A DNA stretch of 64,000 nt, taken from positions 37,533 to 101,532 of the forward strand of contig DOSJ01000004.1 in NCBI GenBank assembly GCA_003514005.1, in the 5' to 3' direction. The notes below the pieces were generated by a model. That model did no database searches, was not told where the DNA came from, and worked only from the letters and a program-made list of their open reading frames with translations. The stretch's first letter is position 1, and each line of letters opens with the position of its first letter. Source of the DNA: Candidatus Falkowbacteria bacterium. Its GTDB lineage: Bacteria > Patescibacteriota > Patescibacteriia > Patescibacteriales > UBA12075. Positions 1,958 to 58,638 of the stretch are shown here, in pieces. The position numbers were made by a program, and so were the translations under genes.

Positions 1958-2371
1958 GTGAAAGACGAAAAAAACCTTATATCCTTGAAAGATGCGGCAA
2001 AAATATCTGGGTATTCAGCGGATTATATTGGACAGTTGATTCGAGCCGGAAAGATACCCGGAAAACAAGTGTGTTGCACTGTTGCCTGGATGACAACCGC
2101 TGATGCCGTTACTGCCTATAAAAACAAAGGCAATGCTGACGCTAAATTAAGTATCAAGGAAAAACTGGCGAATCAAGCGCGAATGGTGGTTATGGAATTT
2201 GATATTATCAAGCTATTTTTTAAAACATTCAAACATTCTTTGCCTTTATTATTAGTAATTTTTATCAGCTTTATCAGTATCAGTTTTTTTGTCGTTTACC
2301 TAATCGGCGCAAAAACAAATGTTAATTCAAAAAGTATTAACAATTCGTCTAGATCGGGTATGACATTCTGA
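1958..2371 (+). CDS. Small HTH (excisionase/MerR-like) protein with C-terminal transmembrane helix
   Basis: The N-terminal 'ISLKDAAKISGYSADYIGQLIRAGKIPG' is HTH-like. A hydrophobic helix 'LPLLLVIFISFISISFFVVYLI' lies near the C-terminus. GTG start. Confidence 0.5.
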   Translation: MKDEKNLISLKDAAKISGYSADYIGQLIRAGKIPGKQVCCTVAWMTTADAVTAYKNKGNADAKLSIKEKLANQARMVVMEFDIIKLFFKTFKHSLPLLLVIFISFISISFFVVYLIGAKTNVNSKSINNSSRSGMTF

Positions 2372-2534
2372 AATATATTTAATTATTTTTTTAAAATTAA
2401 GCCTTTAAACTTTAAAAATTTAAATGGTAGCACAAGACAAGATGTTTAAACTATTACTTTAACATACACGCTAATAGTAATAGACGTAAAGGCGAGTAAT
2501 TTTAAAAAAATAATTAAATATATTTCAGAATGTC
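2362..2534. repeat. Perfect 38-bp inverted repeat flanking a 97-nt spacer
   Basis: Left arm 2362-2399 (GACATTCTGAAATATATTTAATTATTTTTTTAAAATTA) is the exact reverse complement of 2497-2534. The left arm overlaps the stop codon of the HTH gene. Confidence 0.95.
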
Positions 2535-2604: not shown

Positions 2605-5600
2605 ATGCTTGTGCGCAAGAACAGATATCGAAAAATTGTGAGAAATTTTTCTCGATTTTTTGGTCATAAAAACAAAATAACCAGCCAGAGGCGTGTCTAC
2701 GTTTCTGGCTGGCGTTTTGTTTTCGCAAGCTTTATCATATTTTCGATTTTTGCTTATTTTTTTCCGTTCGGACGATTGTTAAATTCGATCAAAGCCTTTG
2801 GTGGGCAAACGGAAAAAATCAACCTGTATGCCAACTATATTCAATCTGAAGAAACGGATGACTTTGCGCAAGGCTGGCACAACAAAGAAAAAGCCGGCGG
2901 CTTGCAAGACCTTGGTCCGAATGCGGACATGCTCGAGTTTTCCGATGAAAATTCCGCTTTTTATTCTGGCGGAAATTTTAGCTTGATTGCCGGGAATTTT
3001 CAATTTTTAACAGAGGCGGCGAATAAGATTATTGAAAATGAACAAGCCGAAGATATTTTGGCAGAAGAACAAGGTGCGGAAATAGTTGATGAGTCTGCTG
3101 ACCTGGAAGATGACACCGAGTCTGAAGATGAAGTCAATTCAGGTGATGAAGCTAATCTGAATGAGGTAGACGAAAATGTGTTTTTGTCAGACGAACAGGG
3201 TGATGACAATTTTGATCAAGAAGAAGAAACCATAAATTCGGCTGATTCAAATTTGACAGAGGAAGCGAACAACATTGTTGACGATAGTTTTGTTGAATCA
3301 GAAAATCTGGATAAACCAGATGTTACTTCAGAAACGACTAAGAGTGAAATTAAAGACTCGGAAGAAACAGAACCGGTTGTAGAACCATTTGACAATAGCC
3401 AAACTCAGGTTTTGATTGAAAGTATTCCAGTCGTTGAAACGGAAACCGAAGTAGTCGGATCTAATGAATCAGGGGCAGAACCCGAGGCCGAGGTGATTGG
3501 GACAGATGAGTCCGTTGCCGAGCAGGTTGTTTCTTATTTAGACAAATTTAAAAAATATTTTATTGCAAAAGCCGCGAACGCGCAAAGCTTTGTCAGCGCG
3601 GAAATTAAAACTTTGGAAGATTTGGGGACATTTAAATCAGCGGTAATTAATCTTTCTTTGGCAATCCATTCCGGAGATATTGCCGGTGATGTTATTGCGG
3701 AAAATATGGATAGCCCGGAAGCTGATACTGCGGAGACGGGGCAATTAGAATCCGATTTTGATAATTCTTTAATAACTATTTGGTATTCGCTTGGCGAACA
3801 AGCCGTGGAAACTGATTCTGACGCGGCAAGCAATACAGATAATCTTTTGTGGCAAAAGCTGGATGTGATTCAATCGAGCAGTGTTTCCAATGCCCTTAAT
3901 AACGGATACTTCAGTTTTGCGGCGCCGTTTTTGGAATCTTGGCAGGATATAGATAATCTAAAAATTAAGCTGGAAGTTTTGGATAATGGCCGGAAAAACT
4001 TGATTTATCTGGATAGTGTTTGGGTTGAGAGCGTATTTGAACGTGAGTCCGAACTGGACAAGCTAAAACAGCGCCAGCGCTGGGAAGAGGCCTTGGACGT
4101 TTTGTCTGACAACTTGATATTCAAAGCCGGTGAAGGCGGCGAGTTGAAATTCCAATACAACAAGAATGAAGAGCGGATTTGGGAAACGCTGGGAGAGTTT
4201 TTGGGTATTGGCAATTTTTGGAAGAATGTTGATTTGGCAATCGTATTGTTTGATCCTTCCGGAGCTGAAACCAATATTGATCTGACTACGATATTTGAGA
4301 GCGACGGAATATTTACCGTTCGTTTGCCGGATACGCTCGCGCTTATGCCCGGCCAATATCGATTGAAGTTTTTTATCAAAGACAGCTCAGGTGAAGCAGT
4401 GGAGGAATTTGAAAAAGTACAAGAATTTTATTGGGGAGTTTTGGCAATGAATTTTAATAAATCCGAATACGAGGCCGCGGAAACCGGTTTTGTACAGATG
4501 GCGGTCCTGGATGACGGCGGACATACGATTTGCAACGCCGAGGTGAACCTTGAGGTCAAAGATGCAAATGGCGATACGCAAATATTTTCGACAAGCGAAA
4601 CCGATGAAGCGAAGCGAATTGTCGTTTCCAAAGAATGCGGTCCAGAAACGGTTACGAATGTACCGGATTATTCGATGCATTATCAGTTTGGTGATAAGGG
4701 AAACTATGAATTCAAATTGACAGCCAAGACTTCTGCCGGAGAGAAAACTATTTTTGAAACAATTGAGGTGAAAGATGTGGGCGCTTTTAGCGTGGAGCGT
4801 TTTGGGCCGACGCGTATTTGGCCGAAAGCGGATTATGGGATGAAGATGAATGTTCTTAGTAGAGAAGATTTTGTTGGAAGTATAGTTGAGACTGTTCCGA
4901 CAGGGTTTAAAATTTCTAATTTCCAATTTCTAATTTCTAATGAATTGCAAAATTTTCAATTTTCAATTGACGAGTTAGAGAATGGAAGCCAAATTACGAT
5001 TAAAGATGTGAATTTAAAAGCTGGGGAGGTTTTGGATATCAATTATACTTTTGATGCACCGGATCGGTCGCCGGAATTGTATCTAGTTGGGCCGCTCTCA
5101 ATCCAAATCGAAAACCCGAAAAGTCCCGATGGGACATCGGGTCTTGATCGAAAATCGGAAATCGAAAATCGCTCCTGGCAGATCGCGTCCGATTCGTTTG
5201 TTAAGCGAGCGCGAACTGTTATGTTTCAGGCTGGGGTTTATAATGACGTGGCAGGCGGGACCGGGCAGAATACCAATAATGACCATGTTTTGCCGGTTTT
5301 TAATTGGAAATTGGCAGAAAGCGGCGTTACGATAAAGAACGCTTATGTTGTTATGGAAACGCAGTTTGAGGCTTATAATACTACCGGTGTTGCTTATAGC
5401 GGCTATAAGCTTGGATTTGATGCTTGCGTTGAAGATTGTACAGCCGCGGCTTTTGGCGCCGGGGGCGGTCAAATAGCAGATGACAATGCTAATGCGCTTG
5501 TGTATGATGATACAGAATCAAACAACGGGCGCTTTCTTTTGGATGTGACGAACGAGGCACAGATTAGTGCCTATACCGGTGATGGCGTATTGATGGAGTC

Positions 5601-8600
5601 GCAGTTTGGCTATCGCTTAAAAAACAGCTCGGCTTATTCTTCGATAGCGAATGCCAGTGCAATGTTGATAGTCACGTATACATATGATATTGATTCGCCG
5701 AATATTACTAATACGGTTATTTATCCTCTGGATTCCGACACCGGTACGAACTATGGCTCTATGCAAGCCGCCCAAGCTGCTTGCACGGCTGACAGCAATT
5801 GTCCGACATTTTCTTATAATATGACATTGCCAGAGTGGTCGGGAGTCGCGACTTCAAGCAATAGGGTTTCTCAGTGGTTCAAAATGTTTGCCGCGCCTAC
5901 TGCCAATACGACAACTGATTTGCGCCCATATCTAGATATTCAGACCATAAATAACAATAGCAGTGCTTTTCATTTTGAAGAAGCTCTTTCTGGCAATGGC
6001 AGTACGCCGCCGATGTATTTTTCGGACTGGTCAGGATCCGGATACGCCGAGAATTTGGCGCAACAAACCGAACTATATGTCAATACGACTAATTATGTTT
6101 TGGGCGGCGAGGTTACGGAAACTTATATCGCCTCTAGCTCCGCGCCGGTAAAAACACGGACTGTGTCTTTTCCGATGGGTGTTATTTCAAACGGTAATAC
6201 CGTTGCTTTGAATAGTCAAACAGCAAATGTGTTTTTTCCGGAAAATGGAAGCGCGACTGGTACGGTTGATATCAAGAGTGCTTGGGTTAGAATAACGGCG
6301 AATGGACATACGGTTAGCGGAACTACCTATACCGCGAATGTATCGACAAAAACCGGAAATAATACTACTACCGGAAATCTGGCTTATCAGTTTCGCTCTT
6401 CGGTTGCCGTAACTAGTCCGGTTTTAAATATAATCCATATAATACCTTCAAGTGATTATACAGAGCTGGAAAGCGCGACAGCCACATCCGGTAAGGCGGT
6501 TGTCGTGAATCTGACATATCTTAACGCCTTGTTTAATGGCGCATCCGTGGAGCTTATGATTACCTATACTTATTCCAGCGAGCAGTCTGGGTATCTTTCC
6601 AGTTTGAATCTTTTTGGCGGACAAGCGGCAAGCGCGCCGGCAACTTCTACCGTTTTGGCAACCGCCAATTCTGTGTTTCCAGAATCGGCAAACAAGACTT
6701 TACTGGCAGCCGGTTTGCGCGCGCATTATTTGAACTCAAACAGCTCAGCCGCGATGGGCACTACCGTTCATTTGTCAACGGCAAATTTGGCGATTGGAAC
6801 ACCGAATTGCGGTTCACCGGCTTATCGGGCGATTCCTGATAGTGTTAATATGACAACAGAAATGCTAGTTAGCGTCAGCGGAGCAATGACAACGGATGAT
6901 AATCAAGCGTATTCCGCCTGCTATGCCAGTGATAATACGGCTATAACAACGGATTCGGCGAAAATGAACGGGACATTGACCTATACTTACGGCTGGACCA
7001 ATACGCCTCCGGTAAGCTCTTTTAATAGCGCAGTTTTTCGGCGAGACGGCAGCGGGACAGTTGATTTGGATGTAGAGGCTGATGATGCTGATGATCATGA
7101 CGTGCGCGCAAAGCTAGAGTTTGCTACTGGAACGACCTGCGTTTTTAGTGCGCCCGGTGACCCTTTGCTTGATGAAATAAATGAAAATATTACGGCTGAT
7201 TTTGCCGATCCATATATCGAGAATGATAATATTTATCAGATTGGAACTGCTAATGGCTATATTAAAACTGCCTCTGGCTCGAATTCGGTTTCTTTTGATT
7301 GGTTGGCAAAGCAAAATTTGGACAAGGTTGAGGGAACTTATTGCCTCAGGCTGACAGCGAATGATACGTTTGCCGATCAGAGCGCGCCGGCGACGACTAC
7401 CGTATATATTGACACTTTGCCACCAACTTCGCCTGGACAATTAAGTCTGAATAGCAGGACAGGGACTAGCGTAACTTTGAATTTTGGAGCTACAACGACC
7501 GAAACAAATTTTAATGAATATAAGATATTTTATAAAATCGCGAATGGCACGGATCCGACCGAGAGCGACAATATGTGGGCATCCTCTTCAGACATTAATC
7601 TGTATAATAAATTTTTTAATGATAAATCTACCACGACAATCAATGTTAGCTTGGTCGGCAGTACGACATATAGCTTTGCGATTTGGGCTTATGATACATA
7701 CGGCAACAAAGCCAGTTCGTCGCGGGTTGATATAATGACGAATGACGCGCCTTTGAGCAGTTTTAACACAGCGGACACAAAGCAAAGAAATGATGGCAGT
7801 GGAGTTGTTGATATTTCGTTGGAGATAGACGATTTGAACGATCATAATCAGCTGTCGGCAAAGCTTGAATACGCATTGGGAGCAGATTGTATTTTTGCTC
7901 CGGGATTGGACCCGCTCTTGGATGAAAATCCGGCGCATGTATCCGCGGATTTTGGCTTGCCCGGAGTGTTGAATGAGAATGAATATCAGATTGGTAATGC
8001 AACCGGCTGGATCATGACTTCGCCTGGAGCAAACACGATTAATGTGGATTGGCTTATGCGGCAAGACGAGGAAAATGCTGATAGCACATATTGTTTGCGT
8101 TTGACAGCTAATGACAGCTTTGATATTCAAAAGACCCTAGCAACCGCGACAATTACGTTGGATAATGTTAATCCAACTGCACCTGGCGCGCTAAGTTCGG
8201 CCGGAGTAACAACCAATAGCATTGATCTGGCCTATGATACTGATAATATTTCAAGCGACACAAACGAGCCTACTGTAAACGCATACAAAGTATATTATAA
8301 AAAAGCGGAGTCAGGGGTAACAATGAACGATACAGAAATCGATAGAACGCATTTTAATACCTACGATTTTAATGGCGCGACATCAACTTTGATAAGCGGA
8401 CTAGAGCAGAATACTTGGTATGTCTTTAATATTTGGTCTTTTGACGCGTATGGCAACATGTCAACAGGAACCGAAACTGCGATCAAGACCAGCGCGACAA
8501 TCAAGAATGAATCGTTAACTTTTGTAAATCCGCGAACAGAAGGGTTGGATACAAACGTTGCGGTAGCGCGACCGGAAAATGAATGGAATTTCCGAGCCGT

Positions 8601-8991
8601 AGTTTCGGAAACAAACGGTTATTTTGCGCTGGATACCGTAAATCTGCGCTTGGCAAATCAGACCGATGATTCTTCGCCATTTTCCGATTTGGTTTTCTCA
8701 TGGGATCAAACGTCCGGCGTATTTACGGAAATAGGCGCGGATATCGGTAACGCGGCAGAGCTTGGTACAGGAAGCAGTGCAGATTGTCTGGGCAATATTT
8801 GTACTTTGGATTTTTATATAGTATTTACAAAAAATTATTTGGCTACCAGCACAGCTTATGCGGTTGGACTTTTGAGCACGAATGACAGCGCTACGACCGA
8901 TGAAGATATGTATTCAAATTTTTACCAAGTACGTTATCCGTTTGTCAGCCAGACGCATTATCGTTGGCGGAATGATGATGGAGGGGAGTAG
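2605..8991 (+). CDS. Giant membrane-anchored surface protein (2128 aa), paralogue of the 5230-aa ORF
   Basis: 6.4-kb uninterrupted ORF. It has a basic N-terminus plus one hydrophobic helix, and a ~170-aa Asp/Glu-rich tract. A ~255-aa module (aa ~606-862) is shared with aa ~158-402 of the 5230-aa ORF. It carries two cassettes of a ~130-aa 'DGSG..D...YCLRLTAND' domain plus an FN3-like 'LNFGATTTExNFxEYKIxYK'. It ends 'HYRWRNDDGGE*'. Confidence 0.9.
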   Translation: MLVRKNRYRKIVRNFSRFFGHKNKITSQRRVYVSGWRFVFASFIIFSIFAYFFPFGRLLNSIKAFGGQTEKINLYANYIQSEETDDFAQGWHNKEKAGGLQDLGPNADMLEFSDENSAFYSGGNFSLIAGNFQFLTEAANKIIENEQAEDILAEEQGAEIVDESADLEDDTESEDEVNSGDEANLNEVDENVFLSDEQGDDNFDQEEETINSADSNLTEEANNIVDDSFVESENLDKPDVTSETTKSEIKDSEETEPVVEPFDNSQTQVLIESIPVVETETEVVGSNESGAEPEAEVIGTDESVAEQVVSYLDKFKKYFIAKAANAQSFVSAEIKTLEDLGTFKSAVINLSLAIHSGDIAGDVIAENMDSPEADTAETGQLESDFDNSLITIWYSLGEQAVETDSDAASNTDNLLWQKLDVIQSSSVSNALNNGYFSFAAPFLESWQDIDNLKIKLEVLDNGRKNLIYLDSVWVESVFERESELDKLKQRQRWEEALDVLSDNLIFKAGEGGELKFQYNKNEERIWETLGEFLGIGNFWKNVDLAIVLFDPSGAETNIDLTTIFESDGIFTVRLPDTLALMPGQYRLKFFIKDSSGEAVEEFEKVQEFYWGVLAMNFNKSEYEAAETGFVQMAVLDDGGHTICNAEVNLEVKDANGDTQIFSTSETDEAKRIVVSKECGPETVTNVPDYSMHYQFGDKGNYEFKLTAKTSAGEKTIFETIEVKDVGAFSVERFGPTRIWPKADYGMKMNVLSREDFVGSIVETVPTGFKISNFQFLISNELQNFQFSIDELENGSQITIKDVNLKAGEVLDINYTFDAPDRSPELYLVGPLSIQIENPKSPDGTSGLDRKSEIENRSWQIASDSFVKRARTVMFQAGVYNDVAGGTGQNTNNDHVLPVFNWKLAESGVTIKNAYVVMETQFEAYNTTGVAYSGYKLGFDACVEDCTAAAFGAGGGQIADDNANALVYDDTESNNGRFLLDVTNEAQISAYTGDGVLMESQFGYRLKNSSAYSSIANASAMLIVTYTYDIDSPNITNTVIYPLDSDTGTNYGSMQAAQAACTADSNCPTFSYNMTLPEWSGVATSSNRVSQWFKMFAAPTANTTTDLRPYLDIQTINNNSSAFHFEEALSGNGSTPPMYFSDWSGSGYAENLAQQTELYVNTTNYVLGGEVTETYIASSSAPVKTRTVSFPMGVISNGNTVALNSQTANVFFPENGSATGTVDIKSAWVRITANGHTVSGTTYTANVSTKTGNNTTTGNLAYQFRSSVAVTSPVLNIIHIIPSSDYTELESATATSGKAVVVNLTYLNALFNGASVELMITYTYSSEQSGYLSSLNLFGGQAASAPATSTVLATANSVFPESANKTLLAAGLRAHYLNSNSSAAMGTTVHLSTANLAIGTPNCGSPAYRAIPDSVNMTTEMLVSVSGAMTTDDNQAYSACYASDNTAITTDSAKMNGTLTYTYGWTNTPPVSSFNSAVFRRDGSGTVDLDVEADDADDHDVRAKLEFATGTTCVFSAPGDPLLDEINENITADFADPYIENDNIYQIGTANGYIKTASGSNSVSFDWLAKQNLDKVEGTYCLRLTANDTFADQSAPATTTVYIDTLPPTSPGQLSLNSRTGTSVTLNFGATTTETNFNEYKIFYKIANGTDPTESDNMWASSSDINLYNKFFNDKSTTTINVSLVGSTTYSFAIWAYDTYGNKASSSRVDIMTNDAPLSSFNTADTKQRNDGSGVVDISLEIDDLNDHNQLSAKLEYALGADCIFAPGLDPLLDENPAHVSADFGLPGVLNENEYQIGNATGWIMTSPGANTINVDWLMRQDEENADSTYCLRLTANDSFDIQKTLATATITLDNVNPTAPGALSSAGVTTNSIDLAYDTDNISSDTNEPTVNAYKVYYKKAESGVTMNDTEIDRTHFNTYDFNGATSTLISGLEQNTWYVFNIWSFDAYGNMSTGTETAIKTSATIKNESLTFVNPRTEGLDTNVAVARPENEWNFRAVVSETNGYFALDTVNLRLANQTDDSSPFSDLVFSWDQTSGVFTEIGADIGNAAELGTGSSADCLGNICTLDFYIVFTKNYLATSTAYAVGLLSTNDSATTDEDMYSNFYQVRYPFVSQTHYRWRNDDGGE

Positions 8992-9123: not shown

Positions 9124-9954
9124 TCACAAATATTTTTCTATTATCACCCTATAATTTTTACAAAAATCATCAATAAAATTTTGGTCGTTAAAGAAATTTT
9201 TCAGATCATAGGCTAATTTTTGCGGTGTTACATTTTTTTCGATAAGAAGTTTGATTTTATTTTTTAGTTCAGCCATATTTTTTATGCCATCAGTTTTTGC
9301 AAGTTCGCTCCAATTTGGCTCTATATCATTTTGTAAATACCAAAACAGATCATAAAAATCCCTGCCTTTGATATTTATTTCATTTTTATCGCCTTTGAAC
9401 CAGCTTCGGTTTAATAATGCTCGAATTTTTCCGGTCATTAAATATTCAAGAGAGTAGTTTTTTACAACTGTGTTGTAGCCGAATTTTGAAATTGGATTAA
9501 TTTCGATTTTTGGCTTTGTATATTCGGACTTGGAAAATTCTAGCTTAACATATAAAAAATCGCTTTCAGAAATATTTTTTGATAATCCTAAATTATTCAA
9601 GACTGGAAATTTTAAGTATAATCTTTTGTCGGATTGAATTTTTACATCAATTTCCAAAAGCCCGTTTATTTTAAAATAGTTTACCAATTCGTCGGATAAT
9701 AATTTAAGATCCAATTTTTGAAAACTGTTTGCCGGTAAATCAAAATCTAAATCTTCAGAAAGTCTTGGTAGGCCGTAGCAGATTCGCAAGCAAGAACCGC
9801 CGGTAAAGATGAAATCATTATATTTCTTATTGCTATAAAGAAAATTTAAAACCGGATATTGCAGAAATTCCTTTAAAAAATTTATGATTACAAAATTGGG
9901 AATTCCTAATTTTTGTTTTTCATTTACAATTTCTTTTAAAATATTGACTAGCAT
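9124..9954 (-). CDS. AbiEii/AbiGii-family nucleotidyltransferase toxin (type IV TA)
   Basis: 'FTGGSCLRICYGLPRLSEDLDFD' matches the GGTAL..R.S.DIDF signature of DUF1814/AbiEii. It lies immediately downstream of an AbiEi-like gene. Confidence 0.8.
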   Translation of the reverse strand: MLVNILKEIVNEKQKLGIPNFVIINFLKEFLQYPVLNFLYSNKKYNDFIFTGGSCLRICYGLPRLSEDLDFDLPANSFQKLDLKLLSDELVNYFKINGLLEIDVKIQSDKRLYLKFPVLNNLGLSKNISESDFLYVKLEFSKSEYTKPKIEINPISKFGYNTVVKNYSLEYLMTGKIRALLNRSWFKGDKNEINIKGRDFYDLFWYLQNDIEPNWSELAKTDGIKNMAELKNKIKLLIEKNVTPQKLAYDLKNFFNDQNFIDDFCKNYRVIIEKYL

Positions 9955-9960
9955 AGATTT

Positions 9961-10596
9961 TTAATAATACATTTTTTTAATTAAAGCAATTGCCATTTTA
10001 ATTTTGTTACTTCTGGCAAACACAGCGTATCCCGCCAATTCGTCAAATTCTTTGGCAGATATATTTTCCCAGTTTATCCTTAATTCTTTGATCTCATTTT
10101 CGTTGATTGGTGTGTTTTTGATAAATCGCAAATAAAGATAATCAAAAACCGCTTTGGACTTGGTTGCAACCATAATCGGCGCTGTGTCGATAAATTTGGC
10201 TTCGTATCCACAAAACAATTTAGGATTTATAGTATAATATCTGAACACACCTAATTTGTTTTTGTATTCCCTGGTGCTTTTGTTGGTGACGGATGTAATG
10301 GATCTAACTGGTTCTGATAAAAGCTGATATTTTGACATTATATATTCCAAAGAAAGATAGGACGGAGTAACCAACTGGCCGGCGGCATATTCTAGAAAAG
10401 CATCTTTGTTTACTTCATTTTTATATTGTTCGCTGAAGGTGTATAAACCGTTTTTAAGCGCAATTAAATCGTCACTATTTAGCCAGTATTTTATATTGGC
10501 ATCAAGAGTATTTGCGTTTTTTTCAAAATTTTTTAAAATATCTTTTGAAAAAATCCTTAATTTTGCTGTTTTATTTTTGATTTCGATTAATTTCAT
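9961..10596 (-). CDS. AbiEi-like antitoxin / transcriptional regulator
   Basis: 211-aa ORF ending 6 nt upstream of the AbiEii toxin start. Size and position are typical of AbiEi. A decayed homologue at 59391-59962 shares 'YLS(L/F)E(Y/W)'. Confidence 0.65.
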   Translation of the reverse strand: MKLIEIKNKTAKLRIFSKDILKNFEKNANTLDANIKYWLNSDDLIALKNGLYTFSEQYKNEVNKDAFLEYAAGQLVTPSYLSLEYIMSKYQLLSEPVRSITSVTNKSTREYKNKLGVFRYYTINPKLFCGYEAKFIDTAPIMVATKSKAVFDYLYLRFIKNTPINENEIKELRINWENISAKEFDELAGYAVFARSNKIKMAIALIKKMYY

Positions 10597-26977: not shown

Positions 26978-27075
26978 ATTACGAATGCACAAATTTATTC
27001 ACAAATTTACAAATGTTTATTTAAGAATTTTATTAAATATTCGTGTATTTGTGAATAAATTCGTGTATTTGTAAT
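26978..27075. repeat. Imperfect 38-nt inverted repeat built from ACAAAT-type repeats
   Basis: ATTACGAATGCACAAATTTATTCACAAATTTACAAATG pairs with TATTCGTGTATTTGTGAATAAATTCGTGTATTTGTAAT at ~31/38, with a 22-nt spacer. Confidence 0.8.
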
Positions 27076-28736: not shown

Positions 28737-29756
28737 ATGCAAAAAATAAAAAGAAGCAAGATTGCAATCGTTGCTGTTTTGATTTTTTCGATGTTGGCGA
28801 TTTATGGGTCTGTTCCGACTGTCAAAGCCGTTTCTTTGGATTTGGCAAAGGATACGATCAGTGATTCGTCACCAAGTTCAAGCGGAGTAACACATACAAT
28901 CGTTTTTGATTTGGGCACTGCCCTGAGCCAAGGCGAATATGTGAACTTTACTTTTGAATCCGGAATTGTTTTAACTGCGGCAACAACAACTTGCCCGTTT
29001 AATACGACCGGATCGGTTGTAAGCGCGCAAGTAATTCGTTGTACAGTAGACTCCGGACAAACCTTGGCGTCCACAACCGCTACATCAACAATCGTTGTTG
29101 ACGCAGTAAATCCCGCTACTTCCAACGATTATAGCGTAACCATCAGTACGCATCAGACTGGTGGTACCGAAATTGAATCTTCTGAAGTGAAGATCTATAT
29201 CATTGACGAAGTTACGGTTACCGCACATGTGCCCGCAACTTTGACATTTACAATCGGTACTACTACTCCTGATGATACGCTCAATAGCCAAAATTTTTCA
29301 GGAACTTCCAGTCCAACATCAATTCCTTTTGGAACTCTTAGCACAACCGAAAAGTTAATGGGTCAAGTATTGAGTGTCTCCACTAACGCTGATGATGGAT
29401 TTAATGTTACCGTGCAGCAAGATGGAAATTTACGTAGCGCGGGAGCGGCAGATATTGATAGTTTTTCAACATCTTCCGCAGTCGTATGGGCTGCACCTAC
29501 ACCAAATATTGATAATGAAAATACTTGGGGTCATATGGGTGTAACATCTGATGATTCTGGAGTATTTACATCAAATACATATAGAGGTTTTGACGGGGTA
29601 AATGCCTTAAGCATTTTTAGCCATAATGGACCGACCAATTCAACCGGCACTGGTACAGGTACCGCTATTGTCGGTTTTAAAATCCAAGTTTCCGCAATGC
29701 AGGAAGCCGGTGATTATCAAAACAAATTGACTTATATTTGCACGCCTACATACTAA
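28737..29756 (+). CDS. Secreted surface protein B (339 aa) with WxL-like C-terminal domain
   Basis: Signal peptide 'IAIVAVLIFSMLAIYGSVPTVKA'. The C-terminal domain (29207-29753) carries 'FGTL', 'STNADDGFNVTV' and ends 'QEAGDYQNKLTYICTPTY*'. Confidence 0.85.
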   Translation: MQKIKRSKIAIVAVLIFSMLAIYGSVPTVKAVSLDLAKDTISDSSPSSSGVTHTIVFDLGTALSQGEYVNFTFESGIVLTAATTTCPFNTTGSVVSAQVIRCTVDSGQTLASTTATSTIVVDAVNPATSNDYSVTISTHQTGGTEIESSEVKIYIIDEVTVTAHVPATLTFTIGTTTPDDTLNSQNFSGTSSPTSIPFGTLSTTEKLMGQVLSVSTNADDGFNVTVQQDGNLRSAGAADIDSFSTSSAVVWAAPTPNIDNENTWGHMGVTSDDSGVFTSNTYRGFDGVNALSIFSHNGPTNSTGTGTGTAIVGFKIQVSAMQEAGDYQNKLTYICTPTY

Positions 29757-33360: not shown

Positions 33361-34209
33361 ATGCGAAAAACCATTAATTTGAAAAAGAAAAGCCTGATCG
33401 GAAAACGAGAGCTTATAGTAATGATAACTGCCGTGGTTTTGACAACGGCCGGTATCAAAGCAAGCGACACCTTGCTTAATCCAAATGAAAGCGCGGCCGT
33501 ACCGAGCGGACCCTGTGAAGAAAGTATGGTTTTGGTAACGAATAGTTCGGGAAATTTTTGCATAGACAAATATGAAGCTGCTCCGGGAAAAGGCTGTCCG
33601 TACCAAGATCCGTCGAATCAGACCGATACGCGCCTGAATCTTGACTATAGCGATTGCAAGCCGGAATCACGCCCGCAGGCTTTGCCGTGGCGCTTTATAT
33701 CACAGAACCAGGCGGCAATGGCATGCGCAAAAGCCGGAAAACGCTTGCCTACGAATAATGAATGGTTAAGCGCGTCATTGGGAACACCGGATATAAATAA
33801 TTCGTGGAGCACAAATGATTGTCAGGTTGCGAAAAATTGGCAAGTTCAGCCGGGCGCGAGCGGTTCCGGAGAAAACTGCAAATCATCCGCGGGCGCGTAC
33901 GATATGATCGGAAATGTTTGGGAATGGGTGGAAGGGACAGTTAATGACGGGCAATACAAAGAAAAGGCCTTGCCGGAAAGCGGTTTTGTTCTGGGTGTAG
34001 ACGACGAGGCAATGCCAAGCGTAACACGCGCGGAATCCGGAGATGAAAATTATTATAATGATTTTTTTTGGATAAAGCAAAAAGGCATCCGCGGCATGGC
34101 GCGCGGCGGCTACTGGGACAATGCGTCCGATGCCGGACAATATTCGCTATACGTTGTTTCCGAACCGTCTTTTGCCGGTACGGGCGTGGGGTTTCGGTGT
34201 GTTAAATAG
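33361..34209 (+). CDS. Membrane-anchored FGE-sulfatase (SUMF1/C-lectin fold) domain protein 1
   Basis: N-terminal TM helix. Also 'FCIDKYEA', 'ACAKAGKRLPTNNEW', 'YDMIGNVWEWV', 'ARGGYW' and 'GVGFRC', which are hallmarks of the FGE-sulfatase domain. Confidence 0.8.
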   Translation: MRKTINLKKKSLIGKRELIVMITAVVLTTAGIKASDTLLNPNESAAVPSGPCEESMVLVTNSSGNFCIDKYEAAPGKGCPYQDPSNQTDTRLNLDYSDCKPESRPQALPWRFISQNQAAMACAKAGKRLPTNNEWLSASLGTPDINNSWSTNDCQVAKNWQVQPGASGSGENCKSSAGAYDMIGNVWEWVEGTVNDGQYKEKALPESGFVLGVDDEAMPSVTRAESGDENYYNDFFWIKQKGIRGMARGGYWDNASDAGQYSLYVVSEPSFAGTGVGFRCVK

Positions 34210-34210
34210 T

Positions 34211-34292
34211 GATTAGTTAATTAGTTAATTAGGTGTTTGGAGATGAAAAAGTAATTTTTTAACTCCCTAATTAACTAATCAACTAATTAACT
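34211..34292. repeat. Imperfect inverted repeat of TTAATTAG-type repeats
   Basis: GATTAGTTAATTAGTTAATTAGG pairs with CCTAATTAACTAATCAACTAATTAAC. Confidence 0.7.
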
Positions 34293-34299
34293 AAACTAT

Positions 34300-34692
34300 A
34301 TGCTACACAAATCAATATCAATCATCCATCAGCTCCGAGTATATTTTTTGCTTGCGATTATCATCGTTTTTTTCGCGTCAGCCGGCATCAATCCCGTTGA
34401 TGTCGGGATTTTTTATGGATCCAAAGTCGGCTCGGCAGTCGGTATGTCGTCCAGTGTAGCGGAAAATCCGTTCAACAAGCTGGCGCTGGATTTGAAGAAC
34501 AAAGAAAACAGCCTAAGCCAGAAAGAGCAGGCCTTGAATGCGAGAGAGGCGGAATTGAATAGCCGCAGCGGACTTAATCAGACGGTTTTGCTGTGGGTGG
34601 TTATTGTTGGAATATTCATATTATTTATTTTGATAATAATCAATTTTATTCTTGATTATCGCAGAAGAAAAAATGAAAAAAATATTTCTTAA
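34300..34692 (+). CDS. Small bitopic/two-TM protein with extracytoplasmic coiled coil
   Basis: Hydrophobic helices near both ends, with a central 'LDLKNKENSLSQKEQALNAREAELN'. No recognisable family. Confidence 0.5.
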   Translation: MLHKSISIIHQLRVYFLLAIIIVFFASAGINPVDVGIFYGSKVGSAVGMSSSVAENPFNKLALDLKNKENSLSQKEQALNAREAELNSRSGLNQTVLLWVVIVGIFILFILIIINFILDYRRRKNEKNIS

Positions 34693-35539: not shown

Positions 35540-35608
35540 AAGTATAAAGTTGAAAGTTGTAAAGTTAAATTTTGAAGATCATACTTTATAACTTTTAACT
35601 TTATACTT
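35540..35608. repeat. Imperfect inverted repeat of AAGTTGA/AAGTATA repeats
   Basis: AAGTATAAAGTTGAAAGTTGTAAAGT pairs with ATACTTTATAACTTTTAACTTTATACTT. Confidence 0.7.
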
Positions 35609-37496: not shown

Positions 37497-37643
37497 CGAA
37501 TGTCGAGTGTCGAGTGTCGAATTTTAATAACTGTTTATTAATTTTGTTTTCTTATTAATTTATGTTATAATATGTTTATAAATATTTTGTTAATTATTTT
37601 TAAAATTAACACTCGAAATTCGACACTCGACACTCGACATTCG
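37497..37643. repeat. Perfect 28-bp inverted repeat flanking a 91-nt spacer that contains a promoter
   Basis: CGAATGTCGAGTGTCGAGTGTCGAATTT (37497-37524) is the exact reverse complement of 37616-37643. The spacer carries TGTTATAAT at ~37563-37571, pointing at the Hsp20 gene. Confidence 0.95.
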
Positions 37644-37666
37644 AAAATCGACATTCGAAAATTTCT

Positions 37667-38119
37667 ATGAGTTTTTTAGATAAATTAAAAGTAAAAGTTG
37701 AAGAAAATAAAGACACAAGCGAGATTAAAGACGGTAAAGTTGATAAAAGCGCAGGTTTTATGCAGCTTGAAGTTGATATTTTTCAGACTGCTTCCGATAT
37801 TTTTGTGATTGCTCCAATGCCGGGTGTTGATATCAAGGATGTTGATATAAGTATTGAAAATGAAAACGATGTAGTAACTATCCAAGGCAAAAAAGACCGG
37901 CCTGCGGTAACAGAATTAAGTGAGGAAAAAGATGATGATTCAAAATTTTTGCGCCAGGAATGCAAATGGGGATTGTTTTATCGCCAAATAATTTTACCCC
38001 AAGAGATAAACGTGGCTGAGGTAGAGGCAAAATTTAAAAAAGGCATCTTAATATTAAGATTACCCATGCTTTTGCTCCAGACAAAAGGAAAGAAAAAGAT
38101 TACCATCAACAACGCCTAG
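37667..38119 (+). CDS. Hsp20/alpha-crystallin small heat-shock protein
   Basis: 'DIFQTASDIFVIAPMPGVDIKDVDISIENENDVVTIQGKK' and 'AKFKKGILILRLP' fit the alpha-crystallin domain pattern. Confidence 0.85.
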   Translation: MSFLDKLKVKVEENKDTSEIKDGKVDKSAGFMQLEVDIFQTASDIFVIAPMPGVDIKDVDISIENENDVVTIQGKKDRPAVTELSEEKDDDSKFLRQECKWGLFYRQIILPQEINVAEVEAKFKKGILILRLPMLLLQTKGKKKITINNA

Positions 38120-40070: not shown

Positions 40071-40685
40071 ATGAATCGATTGAATCTAATCGCGAATAAG
40101 CGCGCGCTCGTGATAGTCGCGCATCCGGACGACGAGACAATCTGGATGGGAGGAACGATCCGCAAGCAAACCGATGTCTTATGGACTATTTTTTCTTTGT
40201 GCCGTGAAAGCGACAAAGATCGCGAGCCAAAATTTCGCCGTGTTTGTGCGTACTACAAAGCCGAGTGCTTGATTGCCGATCTTGACGATGAGGGCAAGCT
40301 TGATTTAAACGAAGCCAAGGAAGAGGCAAAAAAAATATTAACAGTTACGCTGAAAGAAAATAATTATGACTATATTTTTACGCACGGTACAAATGGCGAA
40401 TATGGACACTTGCTTCATATCGCAGTCCACAAGGCGGTTGCCGAATTGATAAAAGAAGAGAAACTAAAACCGGAGGCGGTTTTTTATTTTGATTATACAA
40501 AAAAAGGCTCAAAATTAATTTCAGGAAACAAAAGCCTGACTGTTGAATTGACCAAGGATGAGATATTGAAAAAAAAACAGATTGTCGCGGAAATGTACGG
40601 ATATGCACCGGATGGAATCGATGTCGGCTACTGCACAAATCCGGAAGCATTTACGCGGTGCGTAGTAAAAAGTAAAAAGTTATAA
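40071..40685 (+). CDS. PIG-L/LmbE-family deacetylase
   Basis: 'LVIVAHPDDETIWMGG' and 'THGTNGEYGHLLH' motifs. Confidence 0.8.
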   Translation: MNRLNLIANKRALVIVAHPDDETIWMGGTIRKQTDVLWTIFSLCRESDKDREPKFRRVCAYYKAECLIADLDDEGKLDLNEAKEEAKKILTVTLKENNYDYIFTHGTNGEYGHLLHIAVHKAVAELIKEEKLKPEAVFYFDYTKKGSKLISGNKSLTVELTKDEILKKKQIVAEMYGYAPDGIDVGYCTNPEAFTRCVVKSKKL

Positions 40686-43879: not shown

Positions 43880-43895
43880 CGTCGTATCCAAATGT

Positions 43896-43998
43896 AAAAT
43901 GTAAATCTCAAAATTCAAAATTGCAATGTAAAATTTAAAAATTTATTTATTAATTTTTCATTTTAAACTGCAATTTTGAATTATGAGATTTACATTTT
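43896..43998. repeat. Imperfect ~39-nt inverted repeat (hairpin) between the two tRNAs
   Basis: AAAATGTAAATCTCAAAATTCAAAATTGCAATGTAAAAT pairs with CATTTTAAACTGCAATTTTGAATTATGAGATTTACATTTT. 24-nt loop. Confidence 0.8.
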
Positions 43999-44077
43999 AA
44001 ATTATACTAATTTATATAATCATGGGATTTTAATATTTAAAACAAGTTTAAAACCAAAAATATTAAATTAAATAAAG

Positions 44078-47051: not shown

Positions 47052-47179
47052 GCAAATGTTTGATATTTCTTATTTTTCCTCCTGTCCCCTTCGGGACTCG
47101 CACACACCATGTGGTAGTTCAATTATTTTTTAGGCTCAAACAGTCCTCGGAGTAAAAATAAGAAATATCAAACATTTGC
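47052..47179. repeat. Structured ~125-nt repeat, copy 1 (long covarying stem; MITE-like or RNA element)
   Basis: GCAAATGTTTGATATTTCTTATTTTTCCTCC ... GGAGTAAAAATAAGAAATATCAAACATTTGC. The second copy is at 52995-53115. It lies in the argS 5' UTR, with a putative promoter TTGCAA-16-TAAAAT at ~46986-47013. Confidence 0.85.
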
Positions 47180-51218: not shown

Positions 51219-51370
51219 ATAAGCAATTTTGGGAGATTGGCACCCGAAAAAAATTGCTTATCAATCAAGGCGCCCCGGTTGCGATCGGGGAAACTAGATG
51301 GAACCGCGGGAATTACCTCGTTCTAGTACTTAAAAATAATTTTTTAAGTATTGGAACGAGGTCTTTTTTT
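51219..51370 (+). promoter_or_regulatory. Glycine T-box riboswitch leader (minimal Stem I) with intrinsic terminator
   Basis: Stem I AAGCAATTTT..AAAATTGCTT has the apical loop AGAUUGGCA, with the GGC Gly codon followed by A. Stem III is CCCCG-GTTGCGAT-CGGGG. The T-box is AACTAGATGGAACCGCGGG, with UGGA in the bulge. The antiterminator ACTAGA/TCTAGT competes with the terminator ACCTCGTTC...GAACGAGGT + CT7 (51315-51370). It lies upstream of glyQS. Confidence 0.7.
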
Positions 51371-51378
51371 ATAAAGAA

Positions 51379-51522
51379 TACAAATTACAAATTGCTACAA
51401 ATATCACAAATATTAATTAAAAAATTAGTTATAATTAAGACGTTTAAACTAGGTGATTATCTTTGTTAAAAAAAATGTAAACGAAAAGTATTTGTGTAAT
51501 TTATAGCAATTTGTAATTTGTA
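51379..51522. repeat. Imperfect 34-nt inverted repeat of ATTACAA-type heptamers flanking a 76-nt AT-rich spacer
   Basis: TACAAATTACAAATTGCTACAAATATCACAAATA pairs with TATTTGTGTAATTTATAGCAATTTGTAATTTGTA (3 mismatches). The spacer contains GTTATAAT. Confidence 0.85.
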
Positions 51523-51563
51523 ATCTTAAAATAATTTGTAATCTTATAATAATTCAAAAAAAT

Positions 51564-52994: not shown

Positions 52995-53115
52995 GCAAAT
53001 CTTAAATATTTCTTATTTTTCCTCCTGCGGAACTCGCCCACACCGCCAGATAATCCAGTCATTGTTTAGGCTCGAACAGTCCTCGGAGTAAAAATAAGAA
53101 ATATTTAAGATTTGC
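52995..53115. repeat. Structured ~125-nt repeat, copy 2
   Basis: GCAAATCTTAAATATTTCTTATTTTTCCTCC ... GGAGTAAAAATAAGAAATATTTAAGATTTGC. Arm differences from copy 1 are compensated on the opposite arm. Confidence 0.85.
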
Positions 53116-58488: not shown

Positions 58489-58638
58489 GACTTACGCATC
58501 CGTTGTTTAATTCGAAAAGTATTTGCTGATATTTTATAATTATTCGATTTGGGCGACTGCACCTTCCATACGCCCCATGAGAAGAATTATAAAATATCAG
58601 CAAATACGGTGGTTGCATAAAAATCAAACGCGTAAGTC
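58489..58638. other. ~150-nt extended hairpin (possible sRNA, MITE or bidirectional terminator)
   Basis: Outer stem GACTTACGC/GCGTAAGTC. The middle stem is 26/27 bp (58519-58545 / 58581-58607). Apical stem GGGCG/CGCCC. It lies between convergent genes. Confidence 0.8.

Follow-up and report, generated by a model that had tools for sequence, protein, structure and literature searches.

We analysed a stretch of 64,000 nt from contig DOSJ01000004.1 of a Candidatus Falkowbacteria bacterium (hereafter the window, in whose numbering all coordinates are given). It contains a perfect 38-bp inverted repeat at positions 2362-2534, at the junction between a small helix–turn–helix/transmembrane (HTH-TM) gene and a giant open reading frame (ORF), giant ORF 1 (G1). 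With slightly better than even confidence we interpret this repeat as a young, lineage-specific inverted duplication within a tightly packed operon. It probably arose in one template-switch event and adds a hairpin to the operon mRNA, which would process or attenuate the transcript if it acts at all. A first-pass annotation of the sequence had proposed an invertible phase-variation switch (inverton) or, alternatively, a stable RNA hairpin acting as an attenuator.

The two arms of the repeat, 2362-2399 and 2497-2534, are complementary at 38 of 38 positions and are separated by 97 nt, as the first-pass annotation had it, giving an element of 173 nt in total. The left arm has the sequence GACATTCTGAAATATATTTAATTATTTTTTTAAAATTA. 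At the local composition (76% A+T in arms and spacer) such a repeat is expected by chance about 8e-12 times anywhere in the window. When a region of 261 nt including the element was folded as RNA, a single long stem–loop structure with -68.1 kcal/mol (z = -8.5) was predicted, and the same region folded as DNA also gave a long stem–loop (z = -10.5). The stem is AU-rich, with only four GC pairs in 38. The spacer by itself (2400-2496) showed no significant structure (z = -1.5 for the plus strand and -2.0 for the minus strand), and neither a homologue nor a significant promoter could be detected for it; on its minus strand there is a weak 13-bp hairpin followed by UUUAAAC. A scan of the whole window against Rfam at the gathering thresholds and an E-value scan of 2250-2750 yielded no match inside the element. 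Each arm holds a perfect 10-nt palindrome, AAATATATTT, the copy of the left arm being located at 2371-2380. The sequence TGAAATATATTTCA is not a contiguous 14-nt palindrome in the window.

The element had been placed between the stop codon of the HTH-TM gene (1958-2371, plus strand) and the ATG at 2605. This is correct for the spacer and the right arm, which are intergenic, but the left arm enters the gene: it overlaps the final 10 nt, including the TGA stop codon at 2369-2371.

The HTH-TM gene of the window ends with ATG-ACA-TTC-TGA (M-T-F-stop). The corresponding ends in the relatives are ATT-ACT-TTT-TGA (I-T-F-stop) in locus L070, ATG-GTT-TTT-TAA (M-V-F-stop) in L071 and L072, and L-S-F-stop in L007-L009. 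The terminal residue is F or Y in all 48 aligned homologues, and the terminal dipeptide is TF in 16 of the 48, which makes it the commonest one jointly with SF. Because the end of the window gene aligns with the ends of its homologues, the 10 nt with which the left arm begins (G-ACA-TTC-TGA) represent ancestral coding sequence. The 9 nt that come after them in this arm (AATATATTT) are identical to the sequence following the stop codon in L071 and L072, which are relatives at 77% identity; altogether the 28 nt after the stop codon are AT-rich and comprise most of the palindrome mentioned above.

The outer end of the right arm, TCAGAATGTC, mirrors the stop codon and the last two codons of the HTH-TM gene. 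That these 10 outer nucleotides pair by accident has a chance of about 1.5e-5. Since the left arm has the gene's own sequence in its outer part, we conclude that the right arm (2497-2534, plus strand) is the derived one, an exact reverse-complement copy of 2362-2399. For the same reason, namely that the right arm copies native sequence, a transposon carrying terminal repeats of its own is excluded. To the right of the element follows what remains of the ancestral intergenic region (2535-2604). Homology between this flank (GCGTAAAT…CATCCCC-ATG) and the 3' part of the L072 intergenic region is recognisable; the two can partly be aligned (CGTAAAT…CATCCCC), and the flank ends in a conserved ATCCCC directly before the ATG. 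A MAFFT alignment with the relatives set the gene end of L072 against the right arm. This is a misplacement caused by the presence of AAATATATTT in each arm, and the junctions were read by eye instead.

According to this interpretation the final 10 nt of the HTH-TM gene together with the next 28 nt would have been copied in reverse complement 97 nt further downstream. The likeliest cause would be a single template-switch or fold-back event during replication, whose signature is that native sequence nearby has been copied perfectly in reverse complement. At 2362-2534 we find precisely this combination of an ancestral arm and its exact reverse complement. A single template switch can produce a perfect stem that is tens of bases long (PMC8794818). 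According to two other publications, existing repeat arms can be made uniform or lengthened in this way, and spacers can even be inverted (PMC8604942, PMC13100816). The 76 arm positions are free of mismatches, whereas the intergenic region is barely alignable with the relatives at 77% identity. The copy is therefore either very recent, or selection or gene conversion has preserved the perfect match.

Contigs of many assemblies encode the HTH protein (29 index blocks listed). Seven of the contigs that we fetched, from ENA and JGI, contain the complete element with identical sequence and in the same orientation; an eighth contig (Logan) stops inside the left arm. Because the ENA and JGI contigs come from different samples and different assemblers, the element is not an assembly artefact. 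The carrier contigs are 100% identical to the window over kilobases, with one difference only, at position 2964 in L005. Judged by this identity, all carriers are one clonal population that has been sampled repeatedly. The difference in L005 (position 1753 of contig ERZ27254807) is a T to A exchange that converts codon 120 of giant ORF 1 from TAT to the stop codon TAA, and the gene caller splits the ORF there. It is either a loss-of-function allele or a low-coverage error. The low-coverage contig L004 (ERZ4902888) is identical to the window from 1493 onwards, whereas its positions 1-1444 carry other genes and lack the RNase_T gene; here the contig represents either a recombinant strain or a chimeric assembly.

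The genes on both sides of the repeat form a conserved pair. The first one, the HTH-TM gene, encodes 137 aa with a weak match to HTH_17 and a C-terminal hydrophobic helix. The second one, giant ORF 1 (2605-8991, plus strand), encodes 2128 aa with a weak fn3 match and an N-terminal TM anchor, and its product is probably surface-exposed. A candidate promoter for the operon can be read upstream of both genes at 1838-1867 on the plus strand (TTGTAT, 18 nt, TGgTACAAT, with an extended -10). The homologues of the HTH protein carry the annotation Candidatus Parcubacteria or Falkowbacteria, which places the organism among the Patescibacteria. For comparison we fetched 63 related loci from GTDB representative genomes, 80 from metagenomes, and three close relatives by exact-protein look-ups. 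A large ORF, which often exceeds 1000 aa and runs off the contig, comes after the HTH gene in the same orientation in about 110 distinct loci. The gap between both is usually -29 to about 110 nt, and overlaps of 4-14 nt are frequent. Going by this gene order, the HTH-TM gene and the giant ORF constitute a widely conserved, tightly packed putative operon in Parcubacteria/Falkowbacteria-like genomes of the Candidate Phyla Radiation (CPR).

No repeat homologous to the 38-bp element was found among these related loci. In the nearest full-length relative, L072 (77% protein identity), the gap measures 72 nt versus 233 nt in the window. Unrelated AT-rich hairpins have been gained independently at the same junction in L098 (20-nt perfect arms, 121-nt spacer) and in L011/L081. 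The contig of the 85% relative L070 ends 52 nt past the HTH stop codon within the sequence GTATTTGCTGATA (L070 1850-1862), and these 13 nt are identical to the start of the arm of another repeat of the window, I6 (58519-58531). This match suggests that the junction of L070 is occupied by a different palindromic element. The I6 arm is single-copy in the window, and no copy of it was found in viral contigs.

No site of the TGnTAWWNT type was found on the plus strand between the stop codon of the HTH-TM gene and the start of G1 (2372-2604). This fits the expectation that, in an ancestrally tight operon such as this gene pair, G1 can do without a separate promoter. As G1 thus appears to have no promoter of its own, the repeat would be transcribed within the HTH-G1 mRNA, where it would form a perfect AU-rich duplex of 38 bp closing a loop of 97 nt. 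A perfect double-stranded RNA (dsRNA) of 38 bp is a textbook substrate of RNase III, for which about 20 bp or more of uninterrupted dsRNA suffice; the predicted duplex is longer than this, and its location within the transcript is what we infer from the gene arrangement. The duplex might therefore serve as RNase III substrate and as a roadblock, and transcripts reading through it would be cut or destabilised. By this means the expression of G1 would be uncoupled from that of the HTH-TM gene and probably lowered relative to it, changing the G1:HTH ratio. Since the stop codon lies within the stem (positions 8-10), ribosomes ending the HTH ORF would melt the outer stem, and stem formation would thereby be coupled to the translation of this ORF. 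No gene for RNase III (rnc) was found in the window, to which this search was confined.

The alternative given in the first-pass annotation, a stable RNA hairpin acting as attenuator, is partly in line with these considerations. The hairpin agrees with the explanation that we favour, but it is not a classical attenuator because no U-tract follows the stem. An intrinsic terminator was likewise rejected: there are only 4 GC pairs in 38, the loop comprises 97 nt, the tail GCGUAAAUUU does not start with a direct U-tract and the terminator scan remained silent.

Several points weigh against our interpretation. None of the relatives in the data is at 90-98% identity. The nearest full-length one without the repeat is L072, at 77% protein identity, the intergenic region of which is alignable at its ends only, and the contig of the 85% relative L070 is truncated. 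The template-switch origin is thus a proposal, the spacer may be either ancestral or co-inserted, and the loop of 97 nt is far longer than the loops of published template-switch hairpins. Co-transcription, RNase III cleavage and the effect on G1 are all conclusions that we infer. Moreover, only a single clonal population carries the element; its sequence consequently does not testify to conservation under selection, and it may be functionless.

Among the alternatives, a neutral structural mutation survives best. By this explanation the same inverted duplication took place but has no regulatory consequence, the repeat being one of many AT-rich intergenic hairpins. The restriction of the element to one clonal population and its absence from every relative are consistent with neutrality, and so is the spacer, which is devoid of significant structure or motif. 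Furthermore, about 40% of the larger intergenic gaps of the window hold long repeats in varied states of decay, which are 72-97% complementary. On the other hand, from what is generally known a perfect RNA duplex of 38 bp in an operon transcript would probably not escape RNase III or the transcription and translation machinery, and the hairpins that were gained independently at the same junction (L098, L011 and possibly L070) may hint at a recurrent advantage. On the whole we regard near-neutrality as quite possible, though less probable than the interpretation that we favour.

The headline proposal of the first-pass annotation was an inverton, in which a recombinase flips the 97-bp segment and turns a promoter or terminator toward or away from G1, resulting in phase variation. 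We consider this improbable. The dimensions do fit: the inverted repeats of invertons measure 10-40 nt (PMC11892184) and more than 75% of invertons are shorter than 300 nt (PMC11602134), ranges that include the 38-nt arms and the total of 173 nt. In addition, the element precedes the gene of a giant protein that is probably surface-exposed, the arms show the perfection that recombination would maintain and, as a weak point, the minus-strand 13-bp hairpin with its UUUAAAC would face G1 once inverted. However, 7 of 7 contigs show the same orientation; these are consensus sequences of one clonal population, in which a minority orientation is possible. The statement of the first-pass annotation that the window lacks a recombinase was borne out, as no Pfam domain of a recombinase, integrase, resolvase or transposase was found in the ORFs of at least 150 aa over the 64 kb; the Pfam annotations of 4 kb upstream in L001 did not include one either. 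Invertases usually serve groups of sites, whereas the arm motif is present in no other repeat of the window.

The inverton proposal had drawn on an extended -10 motif on the minus strand of the spacer. The motif, TGTTAAAGT, is indeed present at 2456-2464, but its value as a promoter is at chance level. Motifs of this class occur 119 times in the window, and thus about 0.18 sites are expected per spacer, counting both strands. The sequence also departs from the TGnTAWAAT that is seen upstream of G2 (10844), at 28737, upstream of hsp20 (37563), at 40071 and elsewhere. A generic sigma-70 promoter scan of the region was at background, with 8 sites found versus 6.1 ± 3.0 expected, and between the genes it gave only two weak matches (9 of 12), both in the left arm. 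Inside the spacer neither a promoter nor a terminator acting in an orientation-dependent manner was found. Further points against an inverton are that G1 has probably been co-transcribed with the HTH-TM gene since ancestral times, that the element is absent from all relatives and that a literature search gave no paper on phase variation in Patescibacteria. Scanning metagenome contigs with a pattern of the spacer core gave no match, yet the JGI loci L073 and L074 carry the spacer, and this null result is therefore uninformative on orientation variants or further copies. In the end the geometry alone favours an inverton, against the single orientation, the missing recombinase in the window and the missing significant promoter. 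A working switch, operated by an invertase encoded elsewhere or by template switching between the arms and toggling the 2128-aa surface protein of an episymbiont, is accordingly not what we expect to find, and the chances for it are small. If true, it would be the first phase-variation inverton to be described in CPR/Patescibacteria, observed soon after its birth from an inverted duplication.

Less probable still is the insertion of a miniature inverted-repeat transposable element (MITE) or a Correia-like element with 38-bp terminal inverted repeats between the two genes. The size of 173 bp and the terminal repeats resemble MITEs, relative to L072 the element is an insertion, and these genomes contain other palindromic elements, some of which are multi-copy (I7/I8, see below). 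The left "terminal repeat", however, contains the native HTH codons ACA-TTC-TGA, and the flanks GGGTAT and GCGTAA contain no direct repeat, hence no target-site duplication. The element is also single-copy in the 64 kb; searches of 147 related loci and of collections of viruses, phages and plasmids gave no further copy. BLAST searches with the spacer against the window and all loci gave only AT-rich matches of 11-17 nt, and the only matches in viral contigs, phages and plasmids were AT-rich stretches of 41 nt in Streptococcus phages (E = 1e-3), which are not meaningful. With its native left arm, its single copy and no target-site duplication, the MITE explanation was rejected; the 38-bp repeat is neither a mobile element nor a member of a repeat family.

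That the arms are operators, at which a regulator that dimerises or loops the DNA (perhaps the HTH protein) controls the operon, is also far from probable: the outer heptamer GACATTC/GAATGTC recurs as tandem GARTGTC in the arms of the repeat I10, which bracket the hsp20 promoter, and each arm contains the 10-nt palindrome, but outside both elements the heptamer is not enriched (6 other matches versus about 8 expected), the longer similarity between arm and I10 is without significance and such sites are absent from relatives that share the HTH protein. A recognition motif shared with I10 (GARTGTC at the outer ends of both elements) was dismissed as AT-rich noise, since a 31-column alignment of the arm with the I10 spacer was equalled by 13 of 60 shuffled arms.

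A second hairpin is located close to the repeat but separate from it. It begins 77 nt inside giant ORF 1 and resembles a terminator, with a 14-bp stem including 8 GC pairs (2681-2712, plus strand) followed by CGTTTTGTTTT, so that the feature as a whole extends over 2681-2723; it was matched in the terminator scan. The relatives have hairpins at the same place, whose inner stems differ and are nevertheless paired: CCAGCCGGAAC/GTTCCGGCTGG, CCAGCTGAAA/TTTCAGCTGG, CCCCGCGCTTTTC/GAAAAGCGCGGGG and AATCCCGC/GCGGGATT. A hairpin within the first ~70-220 nt of the giant ORF is present in L007-L009, L012, L015, L019, L047, L071, L072, L078, L092, L096, L101 and others. By strict criteria a hairpin plus T-run occurs within the first 240 nt in 29 of 107 loci, versus about 3.5 expected from ORF bodies. 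The T-runs in the 5' region of the giant ORFs encode the TM helix; conditioned on T-runs, the enrichment of hairpins had an odds ratio of 3.1 (p = 0.0014). In an ungapped RNAalifold analysis of 14 sequences the outer CCAGC/GCTGG pairs were nearly invariant, and one inner pair was GC in five, AU in four and CG in one of the sequences. The hairpin is a candidate for an intragenic, translation-coupled attenuator of the giant gene. This ancestral structure predates the 38-bp repeat and has no connection with it.

The start of the giant ORFs has a characteristic context as well. The sequence [A/T]TCCCC stands directly before the ATG (2599-2607 in the window) in a large share of the relatives, down to about 45% identity of the HTH protein; examples are L007 4472, L010 3766 and L072 2224. 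In L023 and L125 CCCCATG precedes the HTH gene. No Shine-Dalgarno sequence is evident. The start codon of G1 in the window can be enclosed by a 6-bp hairpin, AAGCAU-CCCC-AUGCUU. For the regulation of giant CPR genes, the conserved operon, the ATCCCC-ATG start context and the intragenic hairpin in the first ~110 nt of the giant gene are better leads than the 38-bp repeat.

Other parts of the window contain further repeats. Long AT-rich inverted repeats of 26-53 nt are found in about 10 of the about 24 intergenic gaps of at least 96 nt, among them those at 26978-27075, 34198-34309, 35540-35608, 43891-44003, 51367-51534 and 58519-58607. Their arms often consist of short tandem repeats (AATGTAAA, ACAAATT, TTAGTTAA, AAGTTGA…), and they are probably gene-end hairpins of the organism. 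The first-pass annotation had called the other intergenic repeats imperfect except the one at 37497-37643, and our comparison gave the same picture, with 72-97% complementarity for the others and perfect arms of 28 nt for 37497-37643, the repeat I10. The arms of I10 are composed of three tandem GARTGTC heptamers, a fourth copy being located at 37650. Its spacer of 91 nt is AT-rich and carries a consensus extended -10, TGTTATAAT (37563-37571), directed toward the Hsp20 gene (37667-38119). From this arrangement I10 looks less like an inverton than like a set of operator repeats around a heat-shock promoter.

Another element is present in two copies (I7/I8), at 47052-47179 and 52995-53115. They have arms of 31 nt, which are 97% complementary, and a GC-richer core of 59-66 nt with the shared motifs CTCGCnCACACC … TTTAGGCTCnAACAGTCCTC. 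The copies differ at three stem positions by compensatory double changes. The gene downstream of one copy is that of ArgRS, and the other copy precedes a DUF4147/MOFRL gene; no credible Rfam match was found for the element. It is a candidate for a structured RNA, or else for a small palindromic element that is mobile. The region between the giant ORFs includes, at 9124-10596 on the minus strand, an AbiEii-type toxin gene (E = 2.9e-24), upstream of which there is an ORF of 211 aa that has no Pfam match; this stretch is of lower GC content (27-33%).

How does the 38-bp repeat compare with known systems? With invertons such as fimS, hin, the Bacteroides switches of polysaccharides and surface proteins and PhaseFinder-type elements it shares repeats of 10-40 nt, a segment of less than 300 bp and a position upstream of a surface-protein gene. 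In contrast to these, it is found in one orientation, it has no invertase gene nearby, no arm motif shared with other sites and no significant promoter, its arms copy the 3' end of the gene before it, and the gene after it ancestrally belongs to an operon. With intrinsic terminators and attenuators it has in common that a stable hairpin is situated between co-oriented genes.

The closest functional analogue of the repeat, as far as the likeness carries, is the Correia element. In Neisseria, Correia elements, which are MITEs, are co-transcribed with genes and their stems are cut by RNase III. Like these, the repeat described here sits between genes, is in the size range of roughly 100-170 bp and has long inverted repeats at its ends; in the mRNA it should give rise to a long dsRNA stem that would alter expression. 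Correia elements, however, are multi-copy, possess terminal repeats of their own and duplicate a TA target, whereas the repeat of the window is single-copy, shows no target duplication and has host gene sequence as its left arm.

The hairpins ascribed to template switching (PMC5453318, PMC8794818) likewise combine one pre-existing arm with its exact reverse complement nearby, and they likewise have a perfect stem of tens of bases, no intermediates and a lineage-specific distribution. The published cases mostly have short loops and come from eukaryotic and rRNA/miRNA contexts; here the loop comprises 97 nt and the setting is the junction of a bacterial operon. If our interpretation is correct, the element is a clean natural case of a perfect long hairpin arising in one step within a bacterial operon, and as such it is of modest interest for the origin of RNA structures and regulatory inverted repeats. 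Set beside the known examples, the kind of event is ordinary; the stage on which it is seen is unusually clean.

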